Positions 4,724 to 55,669 of a DNA stretch of 64,000 nucleotides are shown here, piece by piece; within the stretch, counting starts at the first letter, position 1; every line of letters begins with the position of its first letter. Origin of the DNA: an uncultured bacterium (lineage in GTDB: Bacteria > Babelota > Babeliae > Babelales > Babelaceae); assembly GCA_963762095.1 (NCBI GenBank), contig CAVXJI010000004.1, positions 153 through 64,152 of the forward strand, written 5' to 3'. Under the pieces are notes generated by a model. It had not been told where the DNA came from. It did not search any database and worked only from the letters and a program-made list of their open reading frames with translations. Both the position numbers and the translations under genes were made by a program.

Positions 4724-4815
4724 GATCCCCTCGACGACGATATTTCAAGAGATAGGTTTTCATTGACTTATAGATTGTGATAACTTACGGAATTGCGTCG
4801 ATTGTGATGGTATAT

Positions 4816-6550: not shown

Positions 6551-6557
6551 AATAGTT

Positions 6558-6586
6558 GCCAGCAGCCCGACTAACAGGCTGCTGGC
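6558..6586 (+). terminator. Stem-loop after the 5996..6550 gene
   Basis: Perfect 10-bp stem gccagcagcc / ggctgctggc with a 9-nt loop. There is no clear T-tract. Confidence 0.4.
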
Positions 6587-6788
6587 ATCATAAGCTCTCT
6601 TTAATCAAGCCAATCTTTATTGTTCGGTATCTTTCCGTAAGCCAAATCAAGCTATCCTATCCATATTTCAAAACGTTTCTATCGAGGCAGCCATTTTCAT
6701 AGCCCCTCATAATGAATTTCAAACCCTTTATTTGTCATTTTCAGATAGAATATAATAATAGAGGGGCAGGTAGATTCTAGGGGGAATT

Positions 6789-7127
6789 ATGGTAATATTA
6801 AGAATAGCTCGCACACTCAGCTTAGTACTTTTGCTTACTCATGGAGCCATGAGCATGCCTGTCTGTGCCGATTATAAAATATACGAAGCAATCTTGCTCG
6901 ATTGTGCGCATAAAGTACAAGACATAAAAAACAAGCTTGCTCAATTGGATCATCTTATTTCAAAAGCCAGTTTTCATCCCTTTGCAAGCAGAGAGCCTCT
7001 CCAAGACCGTATACATCTTGAGAAAGAATTGCGAACGGCATTAGAAGCCTTGGCAAAAGCCAAAGCACGTGTAGAACAATGCGGCACTCAAAAAAGCACC
7101 GCCAAGAAGGAGTCTCATGCCTCCTAA
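6789..7127 (+). CDS. Secreted coiled-coil hypothetical protein
   Basis: 112 aa. GGGGGAA RBS, a hydrophobic leader and a helical, charged body. Confidence 0.5.
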   Translation: MVILRIARTLSLVLLLTHGAMSMPVCADYKIYEAILLDCAHKVQDIKNKLAQLDHLISKASFHPFASREPLQDRIHLEKELRTALEALAKAKARVEQCGTQKSTAKKESHAS

Positions 7128-7905
7128 AGATCCCGTCATACACAATATTATCTGGGACCTCAGTGGCACTCTGTTTCGACCAACAAGCTGGGGGCTTTCC
7201 GAGCAGCAGATAGCTGATTTATCTCTTGTTTTTTACATGTGGTCGGGAAAAAACAAGCTTTCCAAGCTCGATGCATACGCTTTACAGCTCCTCAATCTTG
7301 CTGAAGAACCTCTTCCCGACTATCAAGTAATTAGACTCCATACCGGAGATCCTGTTCCTGCCGTTGTTTGTTCACTTCTTGCGGGCTTAATAGACTCACA
7401 GGAGGCTTATCGTAAAGTTATGATAGCCGCCGAAAAAGCAGGTCATGATTCTCTGTCACCCGAAGAGCTCATACAAGTGTATCGGATGCTTAAAGCATTC
7501 TTTGATCCTTCCTCTTTAACTCTGTGTATGCAACCCATAGAAGAACATGAAAAGCTTGTTGCGCGGTGCTCTAAAAACCCGGATAACACTCTTTTTGTCC
7601 TTTCCAATTGGGACCGAGAATCATTTGATCAATTCTTTAAAACGCGCAGCGCCTACAATGGCCTTAACCATTTCAAGCGAGAAAATATTATGATCTCAGC
7701 CGATGTTGGTTACATTAAACCCCAGCCCGAGATTTTTGAATCTTTTCTTTCAAAATACAGCCTCGATCCAAGAAGCTGTTTTTTTATTGATGACCAAGAG
7801 GAAAATATTGCCGGTGCGCAGACGTTTGGCATCAGAGGAATGCAGTGTAAAGTAAATAATGGCAACAAACTTTTGCATACCCTTGAAGATTTGCATATCA
7901 TCTAA
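7117..7905 (+). CDS. HAD-superfamily hydrolase-like protein
   Basis: 262 aa. Motif I variant IIWDLSGTLF (DxS instead of DxD), motif II VLSNWD, motif III IKPQPEIF, motif IV FFIDDQEENI. The start overlaps the upstream gene by 11 nt and has an AGGAG RBS. Confidence 0.7.
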   Translation: MPPKDPVIHNIIWDLSGTLFRPTSWGLSEQQIADLSLVFYMWSGKNKLSKLDAYALQLLNLAEEPLPDYQVIRLHTGDPVPAVVCSLLAGLIDSQEAYRKVMIAAEKAGHDSLSPEELIQVYRMLKAFFDPSSLTLCMQPIEEHEKLVARCSKNPDNTLFVLSNWDRESFDQFFKTRSAYNGLNHFKRENIMISADVGYIKPQPEIFESFLSKYSLDPRSCFFIDDQEENIAGAQTFGIRGMQCKVNNGNKLLHTLEDLHII

Positions 7906-7988
7906 CACAGATATTCTTGACTTATAAATTTACTATTTGCAATAATTATAATTGTAGATAGAATTCATGTTCAACTAAAAGGAATCCT

Positions 7989-8549
7989 ATGAAAAGAATC
8001 GTATCATTAACCTTGCTCCTCTGTGCCGGTCAATCACTTTTAGCTACAATTGTTGATGCGGGATTAGATGTATTTAAAGAAACCCAAGTGTATGGCAAAA
8101 ATTCTCCTATCGGTCTTGAAATCATCAATAAAAATAAAGCGCCCTTCTGGTTTGCTCTGAAGAATGGCCCCGATATCTATTCAAGGCTCGGCAAAACTGC
8201 ATTCAAACTCGAGGGAGAAAAATTTCTGCAGAGAAGTGAAGCTCGATATAATTTAGATATCGACGAGCCAACTTTTATAGCAGTATGGAATAACGACCCG
8301 GGAAAGGTTGAATTTAAAAAAACAGCAGTCTTCGGTTTAATGGGTGCGAAGGCATTTTTTCCTCAACCAGATGAATTGTATACGTTTACAGAAGGGAAAA
8401 CTATCTATCTAACTAGAACGCCTAAAGGTGACTTCAAACCCGAAACAGGGCCTCTTAAAGGATTACTGGGCACAACTGATTCCAAGCTTAGTTTGAAAAA
8501 TAATGTCCAAGAAAAAGACATAAAAAAGCTACCAGTAAGCCCTAAATAA
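7989..8549 (+). CDS. Secreted hypothetical protein
   Basis: 186 aa. AAAGGAA RBS and signal peptide MKRIVSLTLLLCAGQSLLA. Confidence 0.6.
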   Translation: MKRIVSLTLLLCAGQSLLATIVDAGLDVFKETQVYGKNSPIGLEIINKNKAPFWFALKNGPDIYSRLGKTAFKLEGEKFLQRSEARYNLDIDEPTFIAVWNNDPGKVEFKKTAVFGLMGAKAFFPQPDELYTFTEGKTIYLTRTPKGDFKPETGPLKGLLGTTDSKLSLKNNVQEKDIKKLPVSPK

Positions 8550-8619
8550 AAAATATATCCTCGTGCGGAGATCGTTATAGAGAAAATCTTAGTTAACAAT
8601 AATAAAAAGGAGAACTAGT

Positions 8620-8853
8620 ATGAAGAAATTGTCTCTACTTTTAACAAGTATAACAATCCTATCTGTAGCCGGCCTGTCAGCCATGCAAACAAGTGAAGCT
8701 GAATGGCACAGACAAATGATGGAAAGCAAAGAAGCTGCAAAAAGAAAAGCCGAACGAGAAGAAGCTGAAAGAAAAGAATCAGCGGCTCGCCAGAAAGCCT
8801 TTTATGAAAAGGCGCAAAAGGATTATGAAAAAACAGGCGCCGTACAATGGTAA
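8620..8853 (+). CDS. Small secreted charged (E/K/A-rich) protein
   Basis: 77 aa. AAAGGAGAA RBS and a leader ending GLSAMQTSE. Confidence 0.5.
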   Translation: MKKLSLLLTSITILSVAGLSAMQTSEAEWHRQMMESKEAAKRKAEREEAERKESAARQKAFYEKAQKDYEKTGAVQW

Positions 8854-8866
8854 AATAGTAATAGAA

Positions 8867-8897
8867 AGAGCTTGCAGGTAGTTCATTTGCAAGCTCT
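8867..8897. terminator. Bidirectional stem-loop between convergent genes
   Basis: agagcttgca / tgcaagctct forms a 10-bp stem between the 8853 (+) and 8930 (-) gene ends. Confidence 0.5.
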
Positions 8898-8929
8898 CTC
8901 ATATCCTGTCAAAATTACTCATCGGCTCT

Positions 8930-10663
8930 TCAAGATGCCGAAAAAATTGATCGGTATTTTTCTGCACATGCAAGATGAAGATAAATTTGATCATCAAGTT
9001 TATCTATTTCTCTATTAACAGCATCCGTTACGCTAACCCGACCCCAGTTTTCATCATTCTTAATTCTTTCGAGTACTTCTTGAGTCAAAGAGGGAAGCTG
9101 CCCCAACCGACCGCTAAACGGTTGCCACCCAAAGGCTACTAATAGCTTGCCAAGCTTTTCTGCCAGATCGTGCCCATAGGCTGGCGAGCTTTTCAGCAAA
9201 TCTATTACTGGTTTATATTTTTCTAGATGAATCATATATTTTTGCTTGCATTCCTCCAGCAATTTTTTGGCAACAGTACATGCACTTTCACTTTTAAGAA
9301 CCAAATAGTTAATGCCATCTCCCGATTGAATTAATCTCAACGCCTCTCTGACTTGGTTCTTTGAAGCAGCAGTCATAAGAGGTGTCCAATCATTCTGTCT
9401 CTCACAATCAGCATGCTCACGCATCAATAAACCCAACAAAAGTACTTGGTCTACAGCATCATCATAAGCTTGCCGAGCAATATCCATCGCTGTCCCCGCT
9501 CCGGACTCCTCTCTGACATCGCCGCCTGCCTTCATTAGGCACGCAACCATCTCAAAATCGCCCCTTTGTGCAGCTTGCATGAGCGGTGTCCATCCAGCAG
9601 AAGTACGAGCGTTCGGATCGGCTTGTGCGCGCAAGAGTTTTGTCAATATGATGGGTCGATTCCAACACGCCGCCACCAGAAGAGGCGGAAGTATATCCAA
9701 ATATGCCCCGCGGCTATCTTGAGGACTCACAAAAATCGGTTTAACAATTCCCTGAATACGCTGCAAATGAGGATCGGTTGAAATATAATAATTAGGTTCA
9801 GCCCCGCAATTTAGTAAGGTATCCACTTCTTCTTGAGAATCTTCATATACGGCTGTTACCAAGCGGCTATTAATATATTTTTTAAATAGAAGTCCTTTAA
9901 GTGCTAGCAAGTCATCGCTAAGCAGGGTGGAGCAAACAAGCGCCTCCAAGTAACTACGCTGGCGGATCGCCTTGGTATAACGCTCGGATATATATTCATG
10001 TACAGCCGTCTTGCTCTTATTCTCCAAGATTTTTGGGGTATTGAGATCAGGCCGCGTTAATGAGGGAAGCCTTTGTGGAAGTAGAGTATTTAATAGTCCC
10101 GTCACAATCATCAATTCTTTTTGATCACCTTTGTCCTGAGTATCAAACAGTCGGGAAGCTAAGTGAAGCAAACATAACCTTTCTTTTTTTAGCACCTCTA
10201 TTGCCAAGTCAGTATCTCTTGTTACTACCGTCGCCTTTTGCCGGGCATCTTTAATAGCTATAAGCATATATCGGGCACTTTCTTGCTCCAATATATCGTG
10301 GCCCCTTTTAGCAATCTGCCACCTTTTTTGAAAATATTCTTCGACGGTCATTTGTGTATCAGCATCGAAAAGTATCGGTTTATGCAGCTGCAAATCATGC
10401 ATTACCACATCAGCTTGGGGAGCTGAATGACGCGCAAGCATCAACTTTAACTGATCTGCTCGTCTAGCCTGTTTGTCCTGATCCAAATAAAAGTCGGACA
10501 TCGCTTGCACAGATAATTTAGAATCAATATCCTGTTGCTCGCGCGTCCATGTATGACGATCCGTAACGGCTGTTGCACGTTTTATCCGCGGTGGTGCTTC
10601 CATAGCGAAACATTGAAGGCCTTGAAAAAGTAAAAAAATCCCCGGAACTAAAGCTTGTATCAT
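8930..10663 (-). CDS. Secreted ankyrin-repeat protein
   Basis: 577 aa. Leader ends QCFAMEAP. ANK units include GWTPLMQAAQRGDFEMVACLMKAGGDV and NDWTPLMTAASKNQVREALRLIQSGDGIN. Confidence 0.8.
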   Translation of the reverse strand: MIQALVPGIFLLFQGLQCFAMEAPPRIKRATAVTDRHTWTREQQDIDSKLSVQAMSDFYLDQDKQARRADQLKLMLARHSAPQADVVMHDLQLHKPILFDADTQMTVEEYFQKRWQIAKRGHDILEQESARYMLIAIKDARQKATVVTRDTDLAIEVLKKERLCLLHLASRLFDTQDKGDQKELMIVTGLLNTLLPQRLPSLTRPDLNTPKILENKSKTAVHEYISERYTKAIRQRSYLEALVCSTLLSDDLLALKGLLFKKYINSRLVTAVYEDSQEEVDTLLNCGAEPNYYISTDPHLQRIQGIVKPIFVSPQDSRGAYLDILPPLLVAACWNRPIILTKLLRAQADPNARTSAGWTPLMQAAQRGDFEMVACLMKAGGDVREESGAGTAMDIARQAYDDAVDQVLLLGLLMREHADCERQNDWTPLMTAASKNQVREALRLIQSGDGINYLVLKSESACTVAKKLLEECKQKYMIHLEKYKPVIDLLKSSPAYGHDLAEKLGKLLVAFGWQPFSGRLGQLPSLTQEVLERIKNDENWGRVSVTDAVNREIDKLDDQIYLHLACAEKYRSIFSAS

Positions 10664-11107
10664 GATTTTGAGTCCTTTATTAGATTAAAACTATATGTTC
10701 GATTATAACAGCATAAGGAAAAACGGCAAGCATCTATTGCCAAGCAGAACTAACTATAGGCAGTAAAATTACAGATGTGAATAAGATCACGCTGTATTAT
10801 ATAATAATGTAATCTAGATCTAATAGTTTTGCATCAGCATCCGGCCAAAGCAGCGTAAGTTCATTAAAAGAAAAAACCGTCAATCCCTGGCCATTCGTTA
10901 CCACCCACTCGCGCATCTCGTGCGCTCCATCGAGCGAGCATTTATAGCAATTTAGTTTTTGGCCATGCTCAATTGTAGGGCTAAGTTGCTACCATTTTAC
11001 TTATATTTTTTTTATAAGACAGGCTTGACTGCTTGGGGCAAAAATAATGGTAGATTGGCAAATATATGATATACTAATAAATTATCATACGCCTTAAGGA
11101 TTGAACC

Positions 11108-12193
11108 ATGTTAGTAGATGAATTACGCGAGAAAATGAAAAGTGCTGAGCCTGATATTAAGGTAATAAAGACCTATTGGGAGAACTCCCATTTAGAAGAT
11201 GAGTACCAGCGCCTACATGCCGTAAGTGTACAAGAAAATTTTTGGCAAAATCCTCAGCAAACTGAAATATTGAAACAGTTGCAGAAGGTTCGATTAAGCC
11301 GTGATCAGTATAATGAGGTCATGACTGCTCACAGTGAACTGAGTGAACTTATAGATCTTTTTGAAACGGATGAGGCAGAACTTTCTAAGCTGCGTGAAGA
11401 TATTTTTAGATGGGCAAAAAACGTTTCACGCTTTAAAATCAATTTGCTTCTAAATGAAGAAAGTGATCATTCTAATTGCTTCTTTAGTATAAATTCAGGA
11501 GCTGGCGGAACAGAATCCCAAGACTGGGCGGAAATCCTTCTTCGTATGTATGTCCGTTTTGCCGAACGGGAAAATATGTCTGCTAGCATTCTCGACTACC
11601 AACCCGGAGAAGCAGCCGGTATAAAGTCGGCAACCTTATTTATTAAAGGAAAGAATGCCTATGGTCTTCTAAAAGGCGAACAAGGTATTCATCGTTTAGT
11701 AAGAATCTCGCCTTATGATGCAAATAAAAGAAGACACACGTCCTTTGCAGCGGCGTCGATCATACCCGAAATCGCAACCACCGAAATCACTATCGATCCC
11801 AAAGATTTACGAATTGATACGTATCGAGCTGGCGGAGCAGGTGGCCAGCATGTTAATAAAACTGACTCAGCAGTACGAATTACCCACATACCTACCAATA
11901 TAGTCGTTCAGTGCCAAAATGAGCGCTCCCAAACTCAGAATAAAGAAACAGCCATGAAAATGCTTATGGCAAAACTCAAACAAAAAGAGAAAGAAGAGCA
12001 AAAGGCAAAAGAAGCGGCCGTCGAAAAAAAGAAAATTGAATGGGGATCCCAAATACGATCTTATATTCTCCATCCCTATAAACTTGTTAAAGACCACCGC
12101 ACAGAGCTTGAATCTCAGCAACCAGATCTAGTACTTGACGGAGATATAATGGATTTCATAGAAGCCGAATTAATCCACATGCAAACATCCTGA
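11108..12193 (+). CDS. prfB: Peptide chain release factor 2 (single frame, no programmed frameshift)
   Basis: 361 aa. GGQ motif RAGGAGGQHVNKTDSAVRITH. The RF2-type block HRLVRISPYDANKRRHTSF reads SPY where SPF is expected. Confidence 0.9.
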   Translation: MLVDELREKMKSAEPDIKVIKTYWENSHLEDEYQRLHAVSVQENFWQNPQQTEILKQLQKVRLSRDQYNEVMTAHSELSELIDLFETDEAELSKLREDIFRWAKNVSRFKINLLLNEESDHSNCFFSINSGAGGTESQDWAEILLRMYVRFAERENMSASILDYQPGEAAGIKSATLFIKGKNAYGLLKGEQGIHRLVRISPYDANKRRHTSFAAASIIPEIATTEITIDPKDLRIDTYRAGGAGGQHVNKTDSAVRITHIPTNIVVQCQNERSQTQNKETAMKMLMAKLKQKEKEEQKAKEAAVEKKKIEWGSQIRSYILHPYKLVKDHRTELESQQPDLVLDGDIMDFIEAELIHMQTS

Positions 12194-12228
12194 CAATCTG
12201 TTGAAGTTCCTTGCATAGCCGATCTGAA

Positions 12229-12324
12229 TTACACAAAAGCGGAAGTAATCACTTTGCGTTGATGGTCGCTTTTGCACTTTATTGCACCATCCACGCGCTA
12301 AGGCACGATGCCTTTCCGGTATAG
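12229..12324. repeat. Degenerate copy of the hairpin repeat also found at 18276..18366
   Basis: Shares cgcttttgcactttattgca...atccacg.gc.aa.gcacgatg.ctttc with the element next to the TnpB relic. Confidence 0.55.
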
Positions 12325-12478
12325 TTATAAAGGCTCATTAACCGACTAAACATATCTAGCAAGTAGTATGTGCTGACAAACAAATAAGAGTGTTTCCTCA
12401 ATTACTTTTATAGGATTTATATTGAATGCCACCTAAGATACTCTATCTGAACTCAAAATTTAGCCTACGAAGATACTC

Positions 12479-14131
12479 CTAAAAGAAAGCCTTTATAAGC
12501 ATCCATAATGAATTGGCTGCAAAAACCCCTGACCAGAATGGATAGTATTCTTCCTTGTCTTTAACCAGATAGGTGGATAGTCCACCAATAATAAGCATTA
12601 ATGAAGCCTCGGCCGGCATTAAAATCCCACCCAACATAAGAGCGGAATTTACTTTAACAAACTTTAAAAGATAACCAAAAACGAGCCCCAAAAGTAGAGC
12701 AAGAGTATCAAATCGTTGTACATTCACAAGCAATGCACGATAGGCCGCACGACTTGCGGGCAGAGCGCCAGGTTCATTTCCGATACCAAAATGCGAGATA
12801 AGTAGCCAAAAAATCACACCAATGAGGAGTGAACTAACGACCAAGCCAAACCATTGGTATTGCTGTATTCTTTTACCATCTATGTCAGCCAACTGCGCCA
12901 TCTTACGCCCAAATAGACAATCGCAGGCTACTCCTCCGGCAATTTCAACATAGGTTGAAACGACCGTTATCTGCAAAGGAGTATAGCCAAACAAAAACAT
13001 CCCCGGCACCATAACAAAAGTAGCAAAACGGCCAAGGGGAGCCAAACCAATTTTTCCTGCAATCAGCATCATTTGATAGATGCATATAAGAGTAAAGGTA
13101 ACAAGATACAGGGTGGCACTCCATGAAAATTGAACTGCTGTAAGGAAAAGTCCATTAAAAAAAAGAGTGCCTCCAATTAAGAGCCACGGTAATTTTGGCG
13201 CGGTTCTTTCCTTATGTATGTGAAAAAATTTACGAAAAACGGAGCGCACAAGCTTTGGCAATTCCAGAAAACCGGTCATTGCCCCATAAATGACCATACC
13301 GCTGCAAAAAGCCACTGTAAAATCCCTTAAAGAAAGAGAACTTCCCGCGGGGGCACTTATTATTTTTGATAAACCGTGTTCATATAAAAAAGTTGAAATC
13401 CAAGGATATATATAATGAAGGGGTTCAATAATAAGTATATTTGCAAGAAATCCCAGCAACAAAGGAATGGCTATCACATGACCCGTGACAAAGCCGATCG
13501 CCCAGTACATGGGCAAGAGGTCCGTTTGGACTGCAATCTGGGGAATTGTGGTGAACCCTAAAGAATATTTTGGGAAAAGAAGAATCTGCTTGGGAGCAAA
13601 ACTGCTGAGAGTTCTTATAAGGAGAAAAGCCTGGGTGCCTAAAAACCCTACCCCCAATGAAACAGCTTTTCGCATGCTGTCTCCAACACTAATCATTTTG
13701 TAGACCAACTCCCCTATAGGAAAAGGAAGTGCTTCACGTACTATAAGAGAATGCTCAAAAATAGTTGCAAGCATAAGTCCCAGTGACCCGGCAGCAAGCG
13801 CGAGGCAACTTAAGAGCAAAGCAAAAGAAAAAGGGCTCTTCATTAAGCAACAAAACGCTGCGTTATCTATAAAGAATAATGTTGGAAATGAAAACCCACA
13901 TGCCGTTGCTAAAATGCCCCCTATGCCCCCGGCGGCGGTTGCAAGGCCGAGCGATTGTGTTCGTGCGCTTGGAGTAACAAACCCATTAAACAGATAAAAA
14001 ATAAGCATCCCGCCTAGCACTAAGGTTGCTTCTATCCAAGGGCCCAAAGAAGTCGATAGTGCTATATAACTATTTATAGCCGTAGCAAAAAATGAAAGTA
14101 AAAAAGCAACACCAACCGTTAAAAAAAACAT
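12479..14131 (-). CDS. OPT-family oligopeptide transporter-like polytopic membrane protein
   Basis: 550 aa with at least 14 hydrophobic segments. REALPFPIGELVYKMI resembles the OPT LPFPSG motif. The family call is by pattern only. Confidence 0.55.
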   Translation of the reverse strand: MFFLTVGVAFLLSFFATAINSYIALSTSLGPWIEATLVLGGMLIFYLFNGFVTPSARTQSLGLATAAGGIGGILATACGFSFPTLFFIDNAAFCCLMKSPFSFALLLSCLALAAGSLGLMLATIFEHSLIVREALPFPIGELVYKMISVGDSMRKAVSLGVGFLGTQAFLLIRTLSSFAPKQILLFPKYSLGFTTIPQIAVQTDLLPMYWAIGFVTGHVIAIPLLLGFLANILIIEPLHYIYPWISTFLYEHGLSKIISAPAGSSLSLRDFTVAFCSGMVIYGAMTGFLELPKLVRSVFRKFFHIHKERTAPKLPWLLIGGTLFFNGLFLTAVQFSWSATLYLVTFTLICIYQMMLIAGKIGLAPLGRFATFVMVPGMFLFGYTPLQITVVSTYVEIAGGVACDCLFGRKMAQLADIDGKRIQQYQWFGLVVSSLLIGVIFWLLISHFGIGNEPGALPASRAAYRALLVNVQRFDTLALLLGLVFGYLLKFVKVNSALMLGGILMPAEASLMLIIGGLSTYLVKDKEEYYPFWSGVFAANSLWMLIKAFF

Positions 14132-16318: not shown

Positions 16319-17494
16319 TTAGCTTAGAATCGAGGATAACGATAGTATTGGTATATAGATGGCAAAAATAAGACAAGCAATTAATGCACCCAAAATAAGA
16401 AGTAGGACCGGCTGAATGAGAGTTGAGTAGCGAGCAATGGCAACATATACTTTCTGACGGCAGGTTTCTGAAATGTGGCTTAACATCGCTTCTAGCGATC
16501 CAGATGATTCGCCTATGACAATGCATGCATCTATTTCCGGGCAGGCAAAAAGACTTTGACTCACCCCAGCAGAAAGAGGTTGTCCAGACTCGATAAGCTT
16601 TGTAATAGACCTTATTTCTTTTTTAATAGTGCTTTGGGATAGTGTGCTTTCAGTTATTTGTAAGGCTTGTGCAAGCGGGATGCCATTTTTCATCAACATG
16701 CTGAGTGTGGTAAAAAAGCGCGCTTGGTGCATGGTGCGATAAAATGAACTTAAGACTGGCATTCTTAAGACAAATGCTTCCCATATCCGAGCCTGGGTTT
16801 CTTTGAGAAGCAGTCGTATAAGCGCTCCTCCTAAAATACAAGCTGATACCGCGCAGATCATATACCAGGAACGCATAAAAGAACTGATTGCCAAAATGCT
16901 TTTTGTAAGAAACGGAAGCGACGCATTATAAGAAGCAAAATAGACCTCAAACCGGGGTATAACCCCAATAAAAATCGCCATCATTACCAGAAAAAAAACG
17001 GACAAAGTAATCAAAGGACCCGTTAACGAGGAGCGAATTTTCTGTTTAAACTCATTCATTATCGTCATATGCTCAGCCAGTTCACCCAACATTCTGCCCA
17101 TATCACCGGTCTTTTCACCCACGGTAATCATCGCATAGGATAGATCGTCGGAAAGACCATGTATTTTTAACGCGTCACTCAGCGGCATACCTTCGGCAAT
17201 AAGAGCTGCACAATCGGTCACCAAAATTCTTAAGGGTTTTTTAGCCATTGAGGCAATAATAGTAAGTGCTTTATGGAGTGGAATATGAGCATTAAGCAAT
17301 GAGCTTAAATGAGAAAAAAATGCATATCTTTCCTGAGGAGTAATGCGTCGCGTCAATAGCGAAGGCCACGCCTGTATCAAACCAATATTTTTTTTAAGAA
17401 GAAGCCCTTTAAGATCATCAACCGAACGAGCAAAAAGTGTACCTTTCGCCACATTTCCGCTAAGATCAAGACCCTTCCAGGCATAGACAGGCAT
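16319..17494 (-). CDS. Type II secretion / type IV pilus platform protein (GspF/PilC family)
   Basis: 391 aa. Two GspF-type repeats and three TM segments in the usual layout (e.g. LSDALKIHGL..., TVGEKTGDMGRMLGELA, GESSGSLEAML). Confidence 0.8.
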   Translation of the reverse strand: MPVYAWKGLDLSGNVAKGTLFARSVDDLKGLLLKKNIGLIQAWPSLLTRRITPQERYAFFSHLSSLLNAHIPLHKALTIIASMAKKPLRILVTDCAALIAEGMPLSDALKIHGLSDDLSYAMITVGEKTGDMGRMLGELAEHMTIMNEFKQKIRSSLTGPLITLSVFFLVMMAIFIGVIPRFEVYFASYNASLPFLTKSILAISSFMRSWYMICAVSACILGGALIRLLLKETQARIWEAFVLRMPVLSSFYRTMHQARFFTTLSMLMKNGIPLAQALQITESTLSQSTIKKEIRSITKLIESGQPLSAGVSQSLFACPEIDACIVIGESSGSLEAMLSHISETCRQKVYVAIARYSTLIQPVLLLILGALIACLIFAIYIPILSLSSILS

Positions 17495-45651: not shown

Positions 45652-46776
45652 ATGCTAGACTGGAGTAAAGTAGGTAAAAATAGTATAGCTATGTGGGGGA
45701 CAATGAAATATATACTACATTCACGCCGAAACAAGCTTTTTGCTCTCGCTCTTTTCTTTGTATCGCCTTGCTACTCTGCGGTAGATCCTGAAGTACAAGC
45801 ACAATTTACGATTTTAAATGCTGCTGTGGCTAATTTGCAAAACAATCAGCCAGGCTTCATTTCAAGGACAGCCTCGGGGATGATTTCAACCATTATAACG
45901 GGAATCGTTGTCTTTGTTGGTTCCCGGTGGCTAATCGATTCCTATCTTACTGCTAAAAACCCTAAAAAACCCGCGCCAGAGCATTTCGCACCTCAAGCCA
46001 AACAACCCTTTACTTTCAAAAATCTTGCGGGCAAAATTCCAGCAGATGTTCTTGAAGTAACAGAATTTATTAAGGATTCAAAAAAGTTCATTGCCATGGG
46101 AGCAAAAATGCCCCGAGGCGTGCTCTTAGTGGGCCCTCCTGGGACGGGAAAGACCTCAATCGCGCGGGCTATTGCGGGAGAATCTCAAGCCTATTTTGTT
46201 GCAATTGCTGCAAGTGAATTTATCGAAATGTTTGTGGGCAACGGTCCTCGTCGCGTACGCGAACTTTTTGCCGGTGCACGCGCAGCGGTAGCTTCAGGTG
46301 CTTATAAAAAAGCGATCATTTTTATTGATGAACTTGACTCAATCGGCGGCGCACGTAATGCAGTATTTGATTCCGGCGGCGCTGAATACCGCAATACACT
46401 TAATGAACTTCTTCATCAGATGGATGGTTTTCATCAGGATGATTCTATTTTTATCCTAGGCGCAACAAATCGCGAGCAAGATATTGACCCAGCCTTAAAG
46501 CGGCCCGGCAGATTTGATAGAATAGTTGAGATTCCTCTGCCTGACATCGAAAGCCGCGAGGCCATTCTCAAACTTTATGCACAGTCTATAAAATACAGCA
46601 AAGATATAGATTTTAGCGCTTTGGCTCGTCAATCTAAAGGAATGAGCGGCGCTGAGCTTAAAAATATCGTAAATGAGGCGGCGATTTATGCCGTGCGTGC
46701 TCAGTCGCAGGAGACGCGACAAGAACATTTTGAAAATGCTCTGAGATCTAAATCTCTCAGAGCATTCAATTTTTAG
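45652..46776 (+). CDS. Membrane-anchored FtsH-like AAA+ ATPase lacking the M41 protease domain
   Basis: 374 aa. The start may be the ATG at 45705, after GGGGGA. Walker A GVLLVGPPGTGKTS, Walker B IIFIDELDS, and SRH ILGATNREQDIDPALKRPGRFDR. The ORF ends right after the AAA lid with no HEXXH region. Confidence 0.8.
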   Translation: MLDWSKVGKNSIAMWGTMKYILHSRRNKLFALALFFVSPCYSAVDPEVQAQFTILNAAVANLQNNQPGFISRTASGMISTIITGIVVFVGSRWLIDSYLTAKNPKKPAPEHFAPQAKQPFTFKNLAGKIPADVLEVTEFIKDSKKFIAMGAKMPRGVLLVGPPGTGKTSIARAIAGESQAYFVAIAASEFIEMFVGNGPRRVRELFAGARAAVASGAYKKAIIFIDELDSIGGARNAVFDSGGAEYRNTLNELLHQMDGFHQDDSIFILGATNREQDIDPALKRPGRFDRIVEIPLPDIESREAILKLYAQSIKYSKDIDFSALARQSKGMSGAELKNIVNEAAIYAVRAQSQETRQEHFENALRSKSLRAFNF

Positions 46777-46865
46777 TTATTTTAATTTCTTAATTCTGAC
46801 AACAGTGTTGTTTTATGATAACTCGATCAAATGCTATTTGACAACAATCTCAATCTATTTCAGGC

Positions 46866-48308
46866 TTAGATTACTTTAACAGCCCGCAATTCGAGAGCTT
46901 TTTTCAATTTTTTCATACTCGACTCGCTCAATGCACTATACTTAAATCCAATCTCCTCAATGTAAGGCATCGCGAGAAACACCTCCGGGTCTATATCAGT
47001 ATGAGGATACCCGGATATCATCATGCGTTTTACAGAAAGGCCCGCAAATGCTCCGGCATTTAAAGGTGCCGCATCATAACCAAAGTAAAGGTGTAATTTT
47101 CTTAGTGGATTATAAGGGGTATTTCCTACCAACCCATTAAAGGCACCCGGCTCTATGGATTCTATATATTCACCTATATAAATGTCCTTTACTCTTAATC
47201 CAATAAAGGCTGCCGAAGAAATATGTCTTAAGTTATTTGAGGTTAGCTCTAATTCGTCGATGCTCAAGCCACTAAAGGCCCTATCCTCAATTTCAAGTAC
47301 GGCTCTAGGACCAGAATAATAAGAAGGATAATCACCAGGCTTTGGATTCTGCGTTAATATGAACTTTGTTAATTGTCTGCCTTCAAAATCGATAAATGTG
47401 TTAGCTTTTATTCGTTTTACATAATTACGAGAAAAATCTATTTCCTTTAAATCTTTAAAAATAAGTAAAGGACGTAATATTTCAGCAGAAATGGTATCAA
47501 AGGCATTGTTATTAATACACACTGAATAAACCGAACCAAAATACGAGCTTTTATTTGTTAAAACTGATTTAATCGTCTCTAAACCTTCCAAATTATTAAG
47601 CTGAAGGCCTCTGAGATTCAATATCACTCTCTCTCTGCCCCGCTCTATTCTTTCTTCAAAAATCTCAGGAGTACAATCAAGACAATCTTTTATTGAAAGT
47701 CCCCATAAGGAAGCCATATCCAGTGGGCACATGGCTGACCTTGCCTCTGGAGACGCAATCAGAATAAAATAGCGAGAAACTTGCTTTAGAAAACGGTCAA
47801 CATTGAATTTTGAGAATTCTCTTGATAACTGTTCTTTTAGCTCATTATATTTTTTTTGCTGTTGATTCCTACCCTCAAGCAAATTTTTTATAACACATAA
47901 ATATGCAAAGTCCAAAATGGGATCAGAGCCTAAATAGTTTGCAAATCTTAGGAACTGATAAGGGTCCGATATCTTTACTTCTTGTAAAAGTGCATCTGAA
48001 AGAGCCTTGCCTTTACTGTCCTTATGATAAAATAAGGACCATGAAAGAGTAGCCAATTCACTAATAAGCTTTGAAGACCAATCAAGAGGAATTGGTGCTT
48101 CCCACCCCAGGTCTTCTATCAAATTCTTAATTGTTTCAGATGTTATAGCAATTTCTCGAGACACTTCGTACTTATCCCCTTCATCATTGCCGATAAGAGT
48201 AATTACATTACCGCTAAATGGTTCTGTTGCTTTTTCAGCAGCTTTCTCACACGCTTGCAGGCTGCAGGTCATAAAGATGGTGGCAAGCAAGATAAGGCGG
48301 ATGGTCAT
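46866..48308 (-). CDS. Secreted/lipoprotein-like Skp1-like (POZ) domain fused to BspA-type leucine-rich repeats
   Basis: 480 aa. Leader is MTIRLILLATIFMTCSLQAC. ITLIGNDEGDKYEVSREIAITSETIKNLIEDLGWEAPIPLDW...YHKD...FANYLGSDPILD parallels SKP1. The C-terminal half has LRR_5-like units (IEDRAFSGLSIDELELTSNNLRHISSAAFIGL...). Confidence 0.65.
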   Translation of the reverse strand: MTIRLILLATIFMTCSLQACEKAAEKATEPFSGNVITLIGNDEGDKYEVSREIAITSETIKNLIEDLGWEAPIPLDWSSKLISELATLSWSLFYHKDSKGKALSDALLQEVKISDPYQFLRFANYLGSDPILDFAYLCVIKNLLEGRNQQQKKYNELKEQLSREFSKFNVDRFLKQVSRYFILIASPEARSAMCPLDMASLWGLSIKDCLDCTPEIFEERIERGRERVILNLRGLQLNNLEGLETIKSVLTNKSSYFGSVYSVCINNNAFDTISAEILRPLLIFKDLKEIDFSRNYVKRIKANTFIDFEGRQLTKFILTQNPKPGDYPSYYSGPRAVLEIEDRAFSGLSIDELELTSNNLRHISSAAFIGLRVKDIYIGEYIESIEPGAFNGLVGNTPYNPLRKLHLYFGYDAAPLNAGAFAGLSVKRMMISGYPHTDIDPEVFLAMPYIEEIGFKYSALSESSMKKLKKALELRAVKVI

Positions 48309-48495
48309 TGTATATCTCCCTTAATCATTATTTATTTTATATTTGAAATATAACAAATAAATCTTTAAAGGTCAATCACGATCGTTTTAAAGACATTTAT
48401 AAGCCTATAGTCCCGGAAAACTCAAGAAATGTATGTTTCTATCAGTTTCAGTTAAATCGCCGATGCACAGGGACTTTTTTCAAATCTTCTCATAA

Positions 48496-48545
48496 AAAGA
48501 GCCGGCTCTTTCTGAGATCTGCTCATAGAAAGAACCGGCTCTTTT
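48496..48545 (-). terminator. Tandem pair of palindromic hairpins after the SPFH gene
   Basis: aaaagagccggctctttt and agaaagaaccggctctttt are two copies of a ~27-nt unit. On the minus strand the downstream hairpin (the 48496..48511 copy) is followed by a T-run. Confidence 0.6.
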
Positions 48546-48575
48546 ATAGACTTAATACATTTTAAGCGGACCTAA

Positions 48576-50174: not shown

Positions 50175-51866
50175 CTAACCTCGTTGTTCTCGTATAAATT
50201 TAGACTCTTCACCCGTCCTGCCGAGTCCAGTGAGGTATATTTCCTCTGCAATGGGCTGTTCCCCTAACTTCATTGCGAGTGCATAAGGCGTTTCACCTGC
50301 TTTATTTCTTGAGCGAACCGAGGCTCCATGTGCAAGCAAATATTTTACCGTATCGGGTTGTCTCCCTTTAATTGCCTCAAGTAATGCTGAATTACCCTCA
50401 GCATCCTGGGAGTTAACCGGTGTCTTTTTAAGCAATCCTTCAAGAACAGGTATCTTGCCAGCAAATGCTGCTTTGCCCAGTTCCTTTGCCGCATCTTGTT
50501 GCTTTTTTGTCATCGGTTCTAAAAGAGCAACAATCTCGCCAAAATTTTTATTTCGAGCACTCTCAAGCGCTGTTTCGCCATCTTCATCTAAACGAGTGGT
50601 ATCTGCACCATAAGCAAGTAGAAGCCTTACAAAAGGCACAATACGTCTATTTGCTGCGGCCAGAAGAGGAGTCGTTGCGCCAAATCCGTAATTAGGATCC
50701 GCTCCATGCTTGAGAAGAAGCTCACCTATCTCCGGATCTTGAAATTCGCTCATAAAAAGCTCTGTGAAAGGCGTAACACCTTCTAGGCTATAATTAGGAT
50801 TCGCTCCCGCATCAAGAAGCAGTTGTATGCTCTTCTTATCCTTAGCGTATCTCAGTTCTCTACCAGTCTTTGCATCTGCATGATGATCAAGAAGAAGCTT
50901 TATAAATTCAGGGCCTTTTCTTGTTGCCGCACCGAGCGGGAAAATTGTTCCCTCATCTCCAAACTGACTCACCGCATTGGGATCAGCTTTATGCTTTAAG
51001 AGGGCTTCAACAATAGCTAGATTCCCTCCATCTATCGCATCCACCAGCGGTGTCGTTACCATATAGCGAGGCTCGATAGACAGTTGCATCCTATTCGGGT
51101 CAGCACCAAAGTATAAAAGCTCTTCTACTGCAATGGTATTGTTTCTACTAATTGCTTCATCAAGGAGGGAATTCTTGCCCGCTCTGCCGTTTGGGTTGGC
51201 ACCACAGGCTAAAAGCGTTGTTATAAAATCGGTACGATCCTCTGTAACTGCAGAACTGAGTGCATCATCAAAGCTGCCCGAGCTGGCAATAAAAGAGCGC
51301 AAAGAGGCTAGCTCTTCAGGAAGGTTCATGGTGGGCTTTTCTGATGTAAGGCTAGCTTTCAACGCCTGACATTTAAGGGATTTTGGATTACGAGGAGGTC
51401 TTCTATCCCAAGAAGGAGCATGTAGTCCGACTAAATAGGCAACGGTTGCTGCGCGATCTTTTTCGGGAGTAACATGTTTTGCAAGATCCAAAGGACTCCT
51501 ATCCCTATAATCTGCTGCTTGGACGTTAAGATCTGCTCCCGCCTTGACAGCAAGCTTTACAAGCTGAAGATCACCATTTACCACACCCCATATGAGTGCA
51601 TTATCGCGTACTTTTTGAGCAAATAATTCGGCCGTGCGAATCATACGCTCGTAAGCCGGCCTTTCTGCTTCACTTGCTCCCGAAGGTATCGGTGGCACGA
51701 GGCCACGGAAATAATCTTCCGCAGCAGCATAATCTTTTTTTGCAATCGCGGATTTAAGAATATAAGGATCAAAAGGGTTTTGAAGCGGTTGAGGCGCCAT
51801 TGAATAGAGTGACCCAACAAGTACAGCTCCTGACAAACATAGGATAGAAAAGATACGAGTTTTCAT
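50175..51866 (-). CDS. Secreted ankyrin-repeat protein
   Basis: The ATG at 51866 (MKTRIFSILCLSGAVLVGSLYSMAPQ) follows GGGAG. There are at least 8 ANK units, e.g. TTPLLAAANRRIVPFVRLLLAYGADT and NSALLEAIKGRQPDTVKYLLAHGASV. Confidence 0.85.
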   Translation of the reverse strand: MKTRIFSILCLSGAVLVGSLYSMAPQPLQNPFDPYILKSAIAKKDYAAAEDYFRGLVPPIPSGASEAERPAYERMIRTAELFAQKVRDNALIWGVVNGDLQLVKLAVKAGADLNVQAADYRDRSPLDLAKHVTPEKDRAATVAYLVGLHAPSWDRRPPRNPKSLKCQALKASLTSEKPTMNLPEELASLRSFIASSGSFDDALSSAVTEDRTDFITTLLACGANPNGRAGKNSLLDEAISRNNTIAVEELLYFGADPNRMQLSIEPRYMVTTPLVDAIDGGNLAIVEALLKHKADPNAVSQFGDEGTIFPLGAATRKGPEFIKLLLDHHADAKTGRELRYAKDKKSIQLLLDAGANPNYSLEGVTPFTELFMSEFQDPEIGELLLKHGADPNYGFGATTPLLAAANRRIVPFVRLLLAYGADTTRLDEDGETALESARNKNFGEIVALLEPMTKKQQDAAKELGKAAFAGKIPVLEGLLKKTPVNSQDAEGNSALLEAIKGRQPDTVKYLLAHGASVRSRNKAGETPYALAMKLGEQPIAEEIYLTGLGRTGEESKFIREQRG

Positions 51867-52097
51867 TATTACTCCCATAATTAGAATTTATAGAGGCTTA
51901 TTTTCTAATTATACCAAGAAACATTTTCATACTGCAATAATCTCTCTGTATAATATTTGCTCGGCAACACCCTTTCTACTATGATTCTCTTTAATGAGTA
52001 GATCCCAATAATTGACATTATTCACAACTCCCATTGCGGTCTTAATAAAGTCATGCTAAAATAAATAATACTTTTTGATAATTAAAAAAAGGAAACA

Positions 52098-52721
52098 ATG
52101 CATAGACTCTTTTTAGCCCTCTTTCTTATCCTACCTGGTACAATGGTATGCATGCAGCCTGATGTTGCCATAAAAACGTTAAACTTCGCATTTAAGCCTC
52201 TTGTCCAGGCTGATTTCGCACTACTCTTTAAATGGTTCCAGCAACCATACATCGCAAAGCTATGGAAAGAGCCGCAGGAATGGGATTTCTTTAAAGATAA
52301 ATTTACTGCGCGGCTCGGCTCGATTGATACTTTTTCTTTCATCGCGTACCTCAATGATCGCCCTATCGGGTATATTCAATACCATCTCGTGAACGATGAC
52401 GATCGCACGCTATTTCCTGACATTTCGCTACCACTAAATAGTGTTGGCATTGATCTTTTTATAGGAGAACCCGATTGTCTTAATAGGGGTTATGGCACAA
52501 AATTATTGGCCGATTTTATTGAGCATATCAAAAAATTAGAACCAAACTGTATGAAAATAATCATTGATCCAGCTCCAGATAACCACCGCGCAATTGCCTG
52601 CTACCAAAAAGTTGGATTTAAAACCAAAGGCACGTACATGACTCCCTACGGTCCAACAGGATCAGGGCCGGGAGAAATACTTCTGATGGTATATCAGATG
52701 CCTAAAATTCTTTACAAATAA
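52098..52721 (+). CDS. GNAT N-acetyltransferase of the AAC(6')-Ib-like / Acetyltransf_8 type, with an N-terminal hydrophobic leader
   Basis: 207 aa. FKPLVQADFALLFKWFQQPYIAKLW...IGYIQYH...GIDLFIGEPDCLNRGYGTKLL...IIIDPAPDNHRAIACYQKVGF parallels AAC(6')-Ib block for block (from my memory of that sequence). Confidence 0.7.
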   Translation: MHRLFLALFLILPGTMVCMQPDVAIKTLNFAFKPLVQADFALLFKWFQQPYIAKLWKEPQEWDFFKDKFTARLGSIDTFSFIAYLNDRPIGYIQYHLVNDDDRTLFPDISLPLNSVGIDLFIGEPDCLNRGYGTKLLADFIEHIKKLEPNCMKIIIDPAPDNHRAIACYQKVGFKTKGTYMTPYGPTGSGPGEILLMVYQMPKILYK

Positions 52722-52794: not shown

Positions 52795-54483
52795 ATGGTT
52801 AGCAAAAAAGCTCTTATTCTATCCCTCTTTCTATCGATGCCCATTTACGCAATGGAAAAATTGGATAGACGCGAAACAGTGGCGAGTTTAAAAGACCTTT
52901 GCATCAAAAAGGTGCTTAGTTTAACGCAAGATTTCCCACTTACTAGTTTAAATTCAGAATTTGTCGACCATCTTATTCCGCATATAAAGGCTGACTTTCG
53001 ATTCCGACTTGTTGGACTTCTCCCTGGCGCAAGCCTTAAAGTCTTCTCCGATTATTTTGCCTGGCATCCTGACGGAAATTCATTGCAAACAAGCGGAGAA
53101 TCGGACCTCAGGCTTACAAAATTTTCGGGCCACACTGCGAGTAGCGAAGATGTAACAATTCATCATGATGATTATGGGAATATCACCGCCGGAGCATGGA
53201 GCCCGGACGGCCAATGTGCTCTCACGTCTTCAGCGGAGAACCTCAGATTGTGGGATTGCAGTACCAAGAGCTCAATCGAAATTTTTCGTTACGATGGCGA
53301 TTTTTCTGATGGCGCCCTTGAGATTAAATGGAATGCTGCAGGTACACATGCCTTTATTATACCATTTATCGGCCCCTTCCTTCTCTTTGATCTAACAAAT
53401 AAACAAGCTCCTACCCATACAGAGCATGAAGATGGCGACGAACCGGGTGCGGAAGATGAAAACCAGGGCTCTCTTAAGGCAGCCTGGAATCCCATTGAGG
53501 ACTATATCCTCTCAGCCTATGAATATCAAAATGCACTCAAGCTTTGGGATATGCGAGATAAGAAACATTGCACCTTTATAAAACTCGAGGGCCATACTGA
53601 GGCTATCAATCAATTTGCTTGGTGCCCCGATGGCTCTTGTGCTCTTTCTGCATCCAAGGATAAGACTCTCAGATTGTGGGCTTTACCAGAGAAAGAAAAT
53701 TGCCATGCAATTAAGCACGCGAAAAAAGATTATCCTTCGCTTATACTTGAAGGACACACAGACGCAGTAACGTGTGTTTCATGGAGTAATGCGAACTACG
53801 CTCTTTCTGGTTCTGCGGATACAACGCTCAGGCTCTGGGATTTACATGATAGGGAAAATGGCCGGTCAATAAGACTGGATGGACATGCCAGGCCGATTAC
53901 CGCCGTTGACTGCAGCCCTGATGGCACCTGCGCTGTTTCTGGCGACACCGAGGGTTCTGTAAGATTCTGGGACCTAAGAAATAAGCAAAAAATTACTTCC
54001 GCCATCCTGCTCAACCATACAGGCACACCGATTAAAGCTATAAGTTGGAATGCAACAAGTTCCAGGGTCCTTATAAGCTATGGAGACTGTTTCAAAATAT
54101 TTCATATCGACGCGTGCCGGGAGGATTCGTCGCAGGACATACTTATGCTCAACACTACCATTTCCACCCTCTGCACAGAGTTTAAATCGGTACTTGCTTC
54201 ATTACCCAATCAAGATGAAAAATATATTTCTGAATTGAGAAAGCTCTTTTTCACTTTCTATGTTACCGGAAAAAAAGCGACCTCTGGTACTTACAACAAG
54301 ACAGACGAAAAAATGTTGGCTGCTGGTTTGAGAACTCTAGGTACCTTCGTGCATCGCGTTGAAGGGGCAGGCAAGGGACTCCCTCTACCATTCAGAGCTC
54401 TCACATTGAGCTTGTATCACATTGTATGGGAAAAGGTGACAGAAACTTCGATGGCTTGCAAACAAATCGCGAAGCAATCCTAA
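52795..54483 (+). CDS. Secreted WD40-repeat protein with an N-terminal SOCS/BC-box-like motif
   Basis: 562 aa. Leader ends IYAMEKL. WD units include LEGHTEAINQFAWCPDGSCALSASKDKTLRLWAL, LEGHTDAVTCVSWS...SGSADTTLRLWDL and LDGHARPITAVDCSPDGTCAVSGDTEGSVRFWDL. The N-terminal region reads SLKDLCIKKVLSLTQDFPLTSL. Confidence 0.85.
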   Translation: MVSKKALILSLFLSMPIYAMEKLDRRETVASLKDLCIKKVLSLTQDFPLTSLNSEFVDHLIPHIKADFRFRLVGLLPGASLKVFSDYFAWHPDGNSLQTSGESDLRLTKFSGHTASSEDVTIHHDDYGNITAGAWSPDGQCALTSSAENLRLWDCSTKSSIEIFRYDGDFSDGALEIKWNAAGTHAFIIPFIGPFLLFDLTNKQAPTHTEHEDGDEPGAEDENQGSLKAAWNPIEDYILSAYEYQNALKLWDMRDKKHCTFIKLEGHTEAINQFAWCPDGSCALSASKDKTLRLWALPEKENCHAIKHAKKDYPSLILEGHTDAVTCVSWSNANYALSGSADTTLRLWDLHDRENGRSIRLDGHARPITAVDCSPDGTCAVSGDTEGSVRFWDLRNKQKITSAILLNHTGTPIKAISWNATSSRVLISYGDCFKIFHIDACREDSSQDILMLNTTISTLCTEFKSVLASLPNQDEKYISELRKLFFTFYVTGKKATSGTYNKTDEKMLAAGLRTLGTFVHRVEGAGKGLPLPFRALTLSLYHIVWEKVTETSMACKQIAKQS

Positions 54484-54847
54484 AGTTTGCCGAACGATTT
54501 TTCTAACTCTATTTTAACTCGGACACATTTTGGCATCCGAGCACGACTGTGTTAAAGCCTGAGTAATGATTAGGACCATTAGGTGGGGGAATCGAATAAT
54601 ATAAAAGATTTTTTTCGCTTCTAGAACAATAAGCGGATAAGTTCATTGCTTACAAATCATATTCAAGAAGCTGGCTCTCCAACGCGAAAAAAATAAAAGA
54701 TCTCGTATTGCTCATAAGAATCTGACAAGTATTCGTTGTACTATACATTCACCAATCAAGCCTCTTTGACTAAAAAATTTTTAAATTGTATTATAAACGC
54801 AATAGTACGTCTCCCGATTCATTTTGTTTTATAAAAGGATTTTCGAT

Positions 54848-55669
54848 ATGATCACGCTAGCCAAAAAATTCATTCCCGTTTTATTCACGTTTTTTCTCGC
54901 AATCAATTATGCTGAGCACATTGCTTGCATGGATCTACCGGCTAGTGCGGAAAGACCGGCAACAGAGAATATAGCAACCAGCGCGGAACAACCGGCAACA
55001 TTAGACGAATGCTCTATCTGTCGTGAACAATTGCCCTCGAGCATAGCAGCTGCAAGCGCTATCTTAACGCTTAATTGCAAACACCAAACCCATAAAGTAT
55101 GCAGTGAAAAATATTACAGAGGTCAAATTTTGGAGAAGGAAAATGTCGCGCTTCTCTGCACGCTATGTAGACACCCGCTTGACTCGGAAGACCTTCAAAA
55201 GCTCGATCAAGCAATCTCATTAGAGGATACGCTCACTTTTTTAAAAGCGCGCGTTGCTCCCTTGCTCATGAATGAACAAAATATGTATGTGTTTGAAGAA
55301 GCTTTCAGCGCACTATCGCGCGTTCAGCAGCTTAATCCTACGCTTAAACATCAATTAGAGCTCTTAAGATTACATTTCATGCTTTTTGCTCGCCACGAAA
55401 TCAATCGCAACATGGCAGCTGCAGCACCAGGGGGCGGCCTTCAACTAGACAGCATCCTCAATCTCAGTCCCGAAAGATTGAATGCATTGCAAGAACCCAT
55501 GACCAGGCTACTACAAAACGTTGCCAGAGGAACAGTAAGGGAGATATCCTATCAAATAAGCGATAGAATATACAATCATCGCAGAATGATTCTAGCAATA
55601 TCATTAGCCTTCTATGTGCACTATTATTTGCTTCCTATTATAATAGGTAAGTTTTTTAGTTCACATTAG
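54848..55669 (+). CDS. RING-H2 finger protein with N-terminal leader and C-terminal TM anchor
   Basis: The track ORF starts at a TTG (54824). The ATG at 54848 follows AAGGA. CSICREQL-x-LNCKHQTHKVC-x-CTLCRHP fits C-x2-C...C-x-H-x2-H-x2-C...C-x2-C. The C-terminal TM is MILAISLAFYVHYYLLPIIIGKFF. Confidence 0.75.
   Translation: MITLAKKFIPVLFTFFLAINYAEHIACMDLPASAERPATENIATSAEQPATLDECSICREQLPSSIAAASAILTLNCKHQTHKVCSEKYYRGQILEKENVALLCTLCRHPLDSEDLQKLDQAISLEDTLTFLKARVAPLLMNEQNMYVFEEAFSALSRVQQLNPTLKHQLELLRLHFMLFARHEINRNMAAAAPGGGLQLDSILNLSPERLNALQEPMTRLLQNVARGTVREISYQISDRIYNHRRMILAISLAFYVHYYLLPIIIGKFFSSH

Follow-up and report, generated by a model that had tools for sequence, protein, structure and literature searches.

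In the 64,000-nt stretch of contig CAVXJI010000004.1 analysed here (the window), a complete gene of 480 codons plus stop, at 46866-48308 on the minus strand, encodes a protein that combines a predicted export leader, a domain homologous to eukaryotic Skp1, a helical linker and a solenoid of leucine-rich repeats (LRR), and that we designate Skp1-LRR. The location agrees with that given in the initial annotation of this DNA, whose quoted leader and protein sequence match the gene exactly. We propose, with a probability of about one half, that Skp1-LRR is an exported, single-chain substrate receptor that would dock on a host cullin and redirect host ubiquitination.

Comparisons with Pfam and the PDB placed the N-terminal domain (residues 33-145; 47874-48212, minus strand) in the Skp1 family. 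Pfam Skp1_POZ (PF03931), already among the precomputed database labels for this protein, matched residues 35-75 and scored 30.3 bits (gathering cutoff, 21.9; E 4.9e-7). Using phmmer against the PDB, the best match was Dictyostelium Skp1a (8.9e-8), with human SKP1 at ~5e-7, and SKP1 chains from humans, plants and yeast, about 25 of them, were matched down to 1e-2. These alignments recovered the blocks EIAxxSxTIKxxxEDLG, PxPL, HKD and ANYLxxxxxLD from which the initial annotation had argued, by eye, for similarity to SKP1; with a bias of 0.0, the similarity is real and not due to low complexity. A profile of 31 bacterial domains, from which eukaryotic Skp1 was excluded, retrieved SKP1 chains from the PDB with E between 1.7e-17 and 1e-15, and Elongin C with ~1e-11, a gap of about six orders of magnitude in E that puts the domain, as judged by these profiles, nearer to Skp1 than to Elongin C. 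The same profile matched none of the BTB proteins in the PDB at E<=1; likewise, Pfam BTB (PF00651) gave no match to the window protein at E<=10 and is not among the 25 families matched by most of its 64 relatives. Additionally, when the bacterial profile was aligned locally with ten canonical Skp1 sequences by hhalign, the probability was 99.4% (E 4.7e-22).

Structure prediction, which the initial annotation had also proposed, agreed with these comparisons. An AlphaFold2 (AF2) model of the full protein, built from a multiple sequence alignment (MSA) of 64 sequences, reached a predicted local distance difference test score (pLDDT) of 91.7 and a predicted template modelling score (pTM) of 0.86 overall, with pLDDT 90-98 over residues 33-185; with an MSA of two sequences only, the N-terminal half remained below 50. 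The predicted elements were β(35-39), β(46-50), α(51-54), α(58-67), β(73-74), α(79-94), α(100-110), α(116-126) and α(129-144), that is, β1-β2-α1-α2-β3-α3-α4-α5-α6, equal to the order of Skp1 in 1FQV, S1-S2-H1-H2-S3-H3-H4-H5-H6. For the comparison of elements we followed a published description of the Skp1/BTB fold (PMC1257465). Foldseek comparison of the whole model with viral structures retrieved Pandoravirus SKP1 (probability 1.0, E 3.7e-3, 154 columns) as well as several giant-virus proteins labelled 'SKP1/POZ'. Together, these results argue that residues ~33-145 form a genuine Skp1-family POZ domain, with a similarity well above chance.

Skp1 homology extends to helix α6 and ends there. 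The hhalign alignment with Skp1 stops at about Skp1 residue 125 of 154, and Pfam Skp1 (PF01466), a 48-position model of the F-box-binding helices α7/α8, did not match the window protein at E<=10; only 12 of the 64 relatives matched it, all of them canonical-type sequences. In agreement with this, a profile of the ~100 residues following the POZ domain retrieved no Skp1 chain and no F-box protein from the PDB. The initial annotation had extended the match over both sub-domains of SKP1, which holds for the POZ core and α5-α6 and not for α7/α8. We thus regard the window protein as something other than a full Skp1, with the cullin-facing BTB/POZ core and α5-α6 as the only conserved parts, and its bridging to F-box proteins is probably absent, because α7/α8 are not detectable. 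A full Skp1 mimic would instead capture F-box proteins, from the host or from the bacterium itself, through its C-terminal helices; the AF2 model does show helices (150-164 and 167-184) where Skp1 has α7/α8, and Dependentiae genomes encode F-box proteins (PMC4378268), but the missing PF01466 match, the end of the hhalign alignment at α6 and a linker profile without counterpart among Skp1 and F-box chains in the PDB make such a mimic highly improbable.

The region that follows the POZ domain is a family-specific helical linker (residues 146-235; 47604-47873, minus strand), with AF2-predicted helices at 150-164, 167-184, 187-193 and 206-220, and running into the first LRR. It reads RYFILI...LWGLSIKDCLDCTPEIF in the window protein, against a family consensus of ARYYFLLtG...SYGFSIQDYLDYxP. 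This module is conserved across the Skp1-LRR family and also precedes LRRs without a Skp1 domain in three tandem proteins from a Dependentiae metagenome-assembled genome (MAG). We also considered the linker as a cryptic F-box or as the missing α7/α8, as the segment LSIKDCLDCTPE resembles 'FNIKNDFTPEE' of Skp1, and discarded both assignments, which found no support in the PDB profile search or in hhalign.

Within the retained core, the window protein contains the motifs PIPL (residues 72-75, in β3; PIPLDW) and FANYL (residues 122-126, in α5), which correspond to hallmarks of Skp1 on its cullin side. Among 39 bacterial members, the β3 positions are conserved in 25 (I73), 19 (P74) and 25 (L75) sequences, and those of α5 in 27 (N124), 37 (Y/F125), 39 (L126) and 26 (D127); position 125 is F rather than Y in 10 of the 39.

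To define the family, we made an exhaustive profile search with residues 21-235 against 1.84 billion representatives (E<1e-3), which yielded 64 proteins, 49 with Skp1_POZ and 41 with LRR_8. The family of Skp1_POZ fusions, most of them with a leader, amounts to about 50 clusters, from MAGs and metagenomes of Dependentiae-like bacteria. Other searches were less productive: with a word index, which was too sparse, the full-length sequence found itself and one homologue of 48% identity, the N-terminal domain alone found none and the family profile added one more; a scan of genome contigs with the single window protein gave no match, whereas an alignment of six sequences located two loci, in an uncultured-bacterium MAG (1.6-Mb chromosome) and in a Candidatus Dependentiae MAG. 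The majority architecture is that of the window protein, leader, Skp1-like domain, linker and LRR. Variants contain two tandem Skp1-like domains plus LRR (P0004, P0006, P0007 and P0016), three tandem Skp1-like domains without LRR (P0024), a Skp1-like domain with a WD40 propeller (P0064 and P0065) or an M48 peptidase with a Skp1-like domain (P0034). In one bacteria-like contig (L009), a gene for three tandem Skp1-like domains adjoins that of a second Skp1_POZ protein (5001-7337 and 7700-9094). The architecture, which the initial annotation did not know from described effectors, is that of a family of about 50 clusters, and the logic of the fusion has precedents (PMC4209131, PMC1257465). The contigs encoding the relatives are bacterial, with genes for SecA, FtsZ/FtsA, MurG and penicillin-binding proteins, and have many neighbouring genes for ankyrin, WD40 and RING proteins.

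The C-terminal half (residues 236-480; 46869-47603, minus strand) comprises about nine LRRs plus a C-terminal capping helix, predicted by AF2 as a solenoid with pLDDT mostly 90-98 and matched by LRR_8 (4.5e-10) and LRR_5 (1.8e-7). Of the profiles named in the initial annotation, Skp1_POZ and LRR_5 thus both matched. That annotation had described BspA-type LRR_5 repeats; the LRR solenoid stands, while 'BspA-type' corresponds to one of two weak LRR calls, and the relatives have LRR_8 or LRR_4. In Foldseek comparison of the full model with the PDB, the top matches, which concern the LRR part, were the ectodomains of the Nogo receptor, LGR4 and TLR (E ~5e-7). No F-box family was among the Pfam matches of the window protein and its relatives. 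The ratio of nonsynonymous to synonymous substitutions (dN/dS) of the LRR region was 0.16-0.39, indicating purifying selection.

The N-terminal leader (residues 1-19, MTIR / LILLATIFMTCSL / QA; 48252-48308, minus strand) is predicted to be a Sec-type signal peptide cleaved after LQA. It had been described as lipoprotein-like in the initial annotation, and in the window protein MTIRLILLATIFMTCSLQA|C indeed fits the PROSITE lipobox pattern; an export leader is thus retained from that description, whereas the lipobox is not conserved. The +1 Cys (LQA|C, Cys20) is Ser (LQA|S) in both closest homologues, and the pattern fits 4 of 54 non-eukaryotic family members, while a hydrophobic leader is present in 41 of the 54. 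No region is under stronger purifying selection than the leader, whose dN/dS is the lowest (0.1-0.2). Its most plausible reading is a Sec/signal peptidase I signal peptide, and not a conserved lipoprotein signal. The type II system is the only secretion system found in cultured Dependentiae, whose ankyrin and other eukaryote-like proteins mostly bear signal peptides, and secretion of these proteins into the host has been proposed (PMC4378268, PMC6561590). Leaders like that of the window protein occur on many eukaryote-like open reading frames (ORFs) of the window.

A signal peptide with a PROSITE-type lipobox is also what an extracytoplasmic protein would have, one that never meets cullins and resides in the periplasm or on the surface, possibly with a lipid anchor at Cys20, with the LRRs as adhesin or receptor and the POZ domain as a scaffold or oligomerisation module. 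The LRRs, closest to extracellular ectodomains and with a weak similarity to an NCBIfam LRR adhesin (E 2e-4, far under the cutoff), fit such a protein. Conversely, the lipobox Cys is not kept even in the nearest homologues, Skp1-specific surface motifs, and not merely core residues, are retained across the family, and identical leaders precede ankyrin, WD40 and RING proteins that are meaningful only inside a eukaryotic cell (PMC4378268). We consequently regard an extracytoplasmic role as unlikely.

Many ORFs of the window, mostly eukaryote-like, share a leader in which the hydrophobic stretch is followed by a small residue, Met and E/D/Q/A (e.g., ...FAMEAPP, ...YAMEKLD, ...SAMDQAS). They include 466-1074(-), 1249-1854(-), 8930-10663(-), 50175-51878(-), 52098-52721(+), 52795-54483(+) and 54824-55669(+), and the motif also occurs in another contig (L007) and in 34 of 54 family members. 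It may mark a signal-peptidase site peculiar to the lineage, or an alternative internal start from which a cytoplasmic form would be made beside the secreted one. The window also contains a lone gene encoding a type II secretion system (T2SS)/type IV pilus platform protein F at 16319-17494(-) (T2SSF, E 8e-47), of interest here since no export route other than type II has been reported for Dependentiae (PMC4378268).

In the mechanism that we favour, the cullin-docking receptor would be exported by Sec and then released into the host cytosol, its Skp1-like core would dock on a host cullin, at its N-terminal domain, and its LRR domain would hold a host protein as substrate. Cul1 would be the likeliest partner, given the lead of about six orders of magnitude that Skp1 has over Elongin C in score, with Cul2/5 being also possible. 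With the linker standing in place of the F-box-binding helices of Skp1, the single chain would act as a pre-assembled unit of Skp1 plus F-box protein that redirects host ubiquitination, comparable to the BTB adaptors on Cul3 (PMC1257465). A design of 'adaptor plus exchangeable receptor' is supported because relatives swap the LRR for WD40, as in the FBXL/FBXW receptor classes. More tentatively, and with somewhat less confidence than for the window protein itself, we suggest that Sec-exported effectors made of Skp1 plus a receptor (LRR or WD40) might dock directly on protist Cul1, bypass host Skp1 and F-box and reprogramme ubiquitination of the Skp1-cullin-F-box (SCF) type; Dependentiae-like bacteria would have captured eukaryotic Skp1 long ago, and the family would then have diversified by birth-and-death.

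The evidence for cullin docking, namely the Skp1 homology and the conserved motifs, would serve equally for a decoy or 'SCF poison' that occupies host Cul1 and blocks the assembly of endogenous SCF, with the LRRs devoted to localisation or stability and nothing being ubiquitinated. Without α7/α8 there would be no recruitment of F-box proteins, and a Cul1-bound copy would be non-productive unless the LRR brought a substrate. The LRRs, however, are kept under purifying selection (see dN/dS values above) and are swapped for WD40 in relatives, which target binding explains better; a pure decoy therefore seems doubtful to us.

Several observations weigh against a cullin-docking receptor. The 'PxPN' of Skp1 β3 is a Cul1-contact motif (PMC1257465), and its Asn is Trp in the window protein (PIPLDW) and Arg in the closest homologues; because of this replacement, the Cul1 contact at β3 may be altered. 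The LRRs look like extracellular-type LRRs, unlike the Cys-containing LRRs of FBXL proteins, and when the full-length model was compared with the PDB using Foldseek, the top 50 matches were all LRR ectodomains, the LRR half dominating the search. That a Sec-exported Skp1-LRR would pass the outer membrane and, if present, a host vacuole is an assumption, and the assignment of lineage draws on two protein identities, both to a single labelled MAG.

Those identities are of the MraY and the amino-acid permease encoded in the window, 62% and 47% identical, respectively, to proteins of a Dependentiae MAG; the RpoD of the window showed no special proteobacterial affinity. The source is thus probably a Dependentiae-like intracellular bacterium, as far as these sequences tell. 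A chlamydial origin, as a member of the Protochlamydia PEX1 family, was considered and rejected, given the FtsZ/FtsA on the contig of a relative, the Sec-type leaders and the 62% identity of MraY to the Dependentiae MAG. To our knowledge, Chlamydiae lack FtsZ. Published Dependentiae genomes encode F-box, RING and deubiquitinase proteins, and no Skp1-like protein has been reported from them (PMC4378268, PMC6561590).

The Skp1-LRR gene is genuine and maintained, and its context is bacterial. An identical protein occurs on 10 contigs, and the four listed come from three sequencing runs and one NCBI assembly. A Shine-Dalgarno-like GGGAG (48316-48320, minus strand) was read 7 nt 5' of the ATG at 48308, and a promoter-like site, TTGACC-17 nt-TATATT with a TG ahead of the -10 element (48347-48375, minus strand), was found by a consensus scan with 10 of 12 matches, and is a consensus match only; with both in place, the start codon is credible. 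Neighbouring genes include rpoD, dnaG, lgt, CNNM/CorC, an AAA ATPase gene, Band7/NfeD, mraY and tRNA genes. A second Skp1-LRR copy was sought within the window and no paralogue was found.

Comparison with the contig L001, from a sister genome, revealed that the gene lies in a hypervariable island (46777-48575) between an AAA-ATPase gene, ending at 46776, and a Band7/SPFH gene, ending at 48576. Proteins encoded in the flanks are 92-99.8% identical between both genomes (RpoD, 99.2%; WD40, 99.8%), and the nucleotide homology, 91-93% in the flanks, ends precisely where the AAA and Band7 genes have their stop codons. The L001 island contains three genes, including two tandem Skp1-LRR paralogues and a 555-aa ORF without Pfam match, with island ORFs at 7870-9537 and 10001-13039. 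The two L001 copies are 73% identical to each other and 46-48% identical to the window protein, and behind each lies a duplicate of part of the 3' end of the AAA gene, which we interpret as the footprint of unequal recombination. In comparisons of the window gene with the L001 copies, dS has reached saturation (~1.5), and dN/dS is 0.27-0.37, because of which the window gene is not considered a pseudogene. The window and L001 copies are functional paralogues of old date, which were either sorted by birth-and-death or replaced via recombination; the same pattern has been reported for chlamydial ubiquitin-related effector families (PMC4209131), and a gene for interaction with the host would be expected to lie in such an island of fast turnover.

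Downstream of the Band7 gene, the intergenic stretch 48490-48545 contains two copies of the palindrome AAAGAGCCGG(C/T)TCTTT, which look like terminators, and is 85% conserved in the L001 island. Small leader-bearing AAA-ATPase-like proteins are encoded at 466-1074(-) and 1249-1854(-), in tandem, and at 45652-46776(+), adjoining the Skp1-LRR gene; they recall the expansion, in Babela massiliensis, of AAA fusions with signal peptides (PMC4378268).

The window also encodes four ankyrin-repeat proteins and one WD40-propeller protein (8930-10663(-), 24820-25803(+), 50175-51878(-), 57302-58198(+) and 52795-54483(+)), all with a hydrophobic N-terminal leader, a set typical of protist-associated intracellular bacteria. 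One of them, 24820-25803(+), has its leader and ankyrin repeats followed by a C-terminal zf-RING_2 (E 2e-4, sub-threshold), and 54824-55669(+) combines a leader with zf-C3HC4 (E 4e-4, also sub-threshold). In contig L006, the ORF 4010-4774, with a leader and a Cys/His-rich C-terminus that appears RING-like by eye, adjoins two Skp1-LRR paralogues. These RING-like leader proteins are further candidate ubiquitin-ligase mimics. Additionally, 22468-24381(-) encodes, after a leader, a cytosolic phospholipase A2/lysophospholipase domain of eukaryotic type (PLA2_B, E 4e-20), and 20374-21744(-) a protein with Schlafen AlbA_2 and HATPase_c_4.

Among known systems, eukaryotic Skp1 (PF03931 plus PF01466) shares with the window protein the BTB/POZ core through α6, the Skp1-specific position of α4, the I/V-P-L of β3 and the AANYLD of α5. 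Conversely, it is a stand-alone protein of ~160 aa that includes α7/α8, whereas the window protein is bacterial, has a signal peptide and a fused linker plus LRRs, and α7/α8 were undetected. Elongin C was the second-best match, at ~1e-11 with the bacterial-only profile. It ends in a related helix, AANFLDC. Unlike the bacterial domain, for which AF2 predicts α6, Elongin C is without the α6 (A5) helix (PMC1257465).

The closest precedent in architecture is the PEX1 family of Protochlamydia, with an N-terminal BTB domain, C-terminal LRRs and a type III secretion signal (Domman et al. 2014, PMC4209131); according to the same paper, BTB domains were known in no prokaryotes other than Parachlamydiaceae. 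As compared from the description of PEX1 only, both groups come from amoeba-associated intracellular bacteria, join an N-terminal POZ-fold adaptor to C-terminal LRRs, show tandem duplication and birth-and-death, and are proposed effectors on host cullin-RING ligases. They differ in that PEX1 has a Pfam BTB domain and a type III signal, while the proteins described here have Skp1_POZ and a Sec leader and are encoded in FtsZ-bearing genomes of another lineage. Likewise, the Cul3 BTB adaptors (BTB-Kelch, MATH-BTB) place a POZ fold and substrate-binding repeats in one chain via a helical linker, their BACK/3-box replacing α7/α8 of Skp1 plus the F-box (PMC1257465); the window protein, in contrast, belongs to the Skp1 subfamily, is bacterial, has no BACK and would presumably have a Cul1-like partner cullin.

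Legionella AnkB/LegU1 and the Ralstonia GALA F-box-LRR proteins also use eukaryote-like modules that place a bacterial receptor (LRR or ankyrin) in the host SCF (PMC4209131, PMC2244805), but they mimic the F-box protein and need host Skp1, whereas the window protein would mimic Skp1 itself, with no F-box detected. In our literature search we found no description of a bacterial Skp1 homologue, of a Skp1_POZ-LRR effector or of Skp1 in Dependentiae. A POZ-fold adaptor joined to repeats was therefore known from amoeba-associated bacteria, and what appears new is a Skp1-derived, F-box-independent and Sec-exported version. It predicts binding to the N-terminal domain of cullins, with N124/Y125 at the interface, and would give a testable handle on the manipulation of protist hosts by the poorly studied Dependentiae; furthermore, about 50 clusters, the LRR/WD40 exchange and a hypervariable locus would make it a natural system for the evolution of effector specificity. 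The bacterial mimics of SCF described so far imitate the F-box protein, RING/U-box or BTB domains; if our proposal is true, here the pathogen supplies adaptor and receptor in a single chain, a Skp1 minus its F-box-binding helices joined to substrate-binding repeats.

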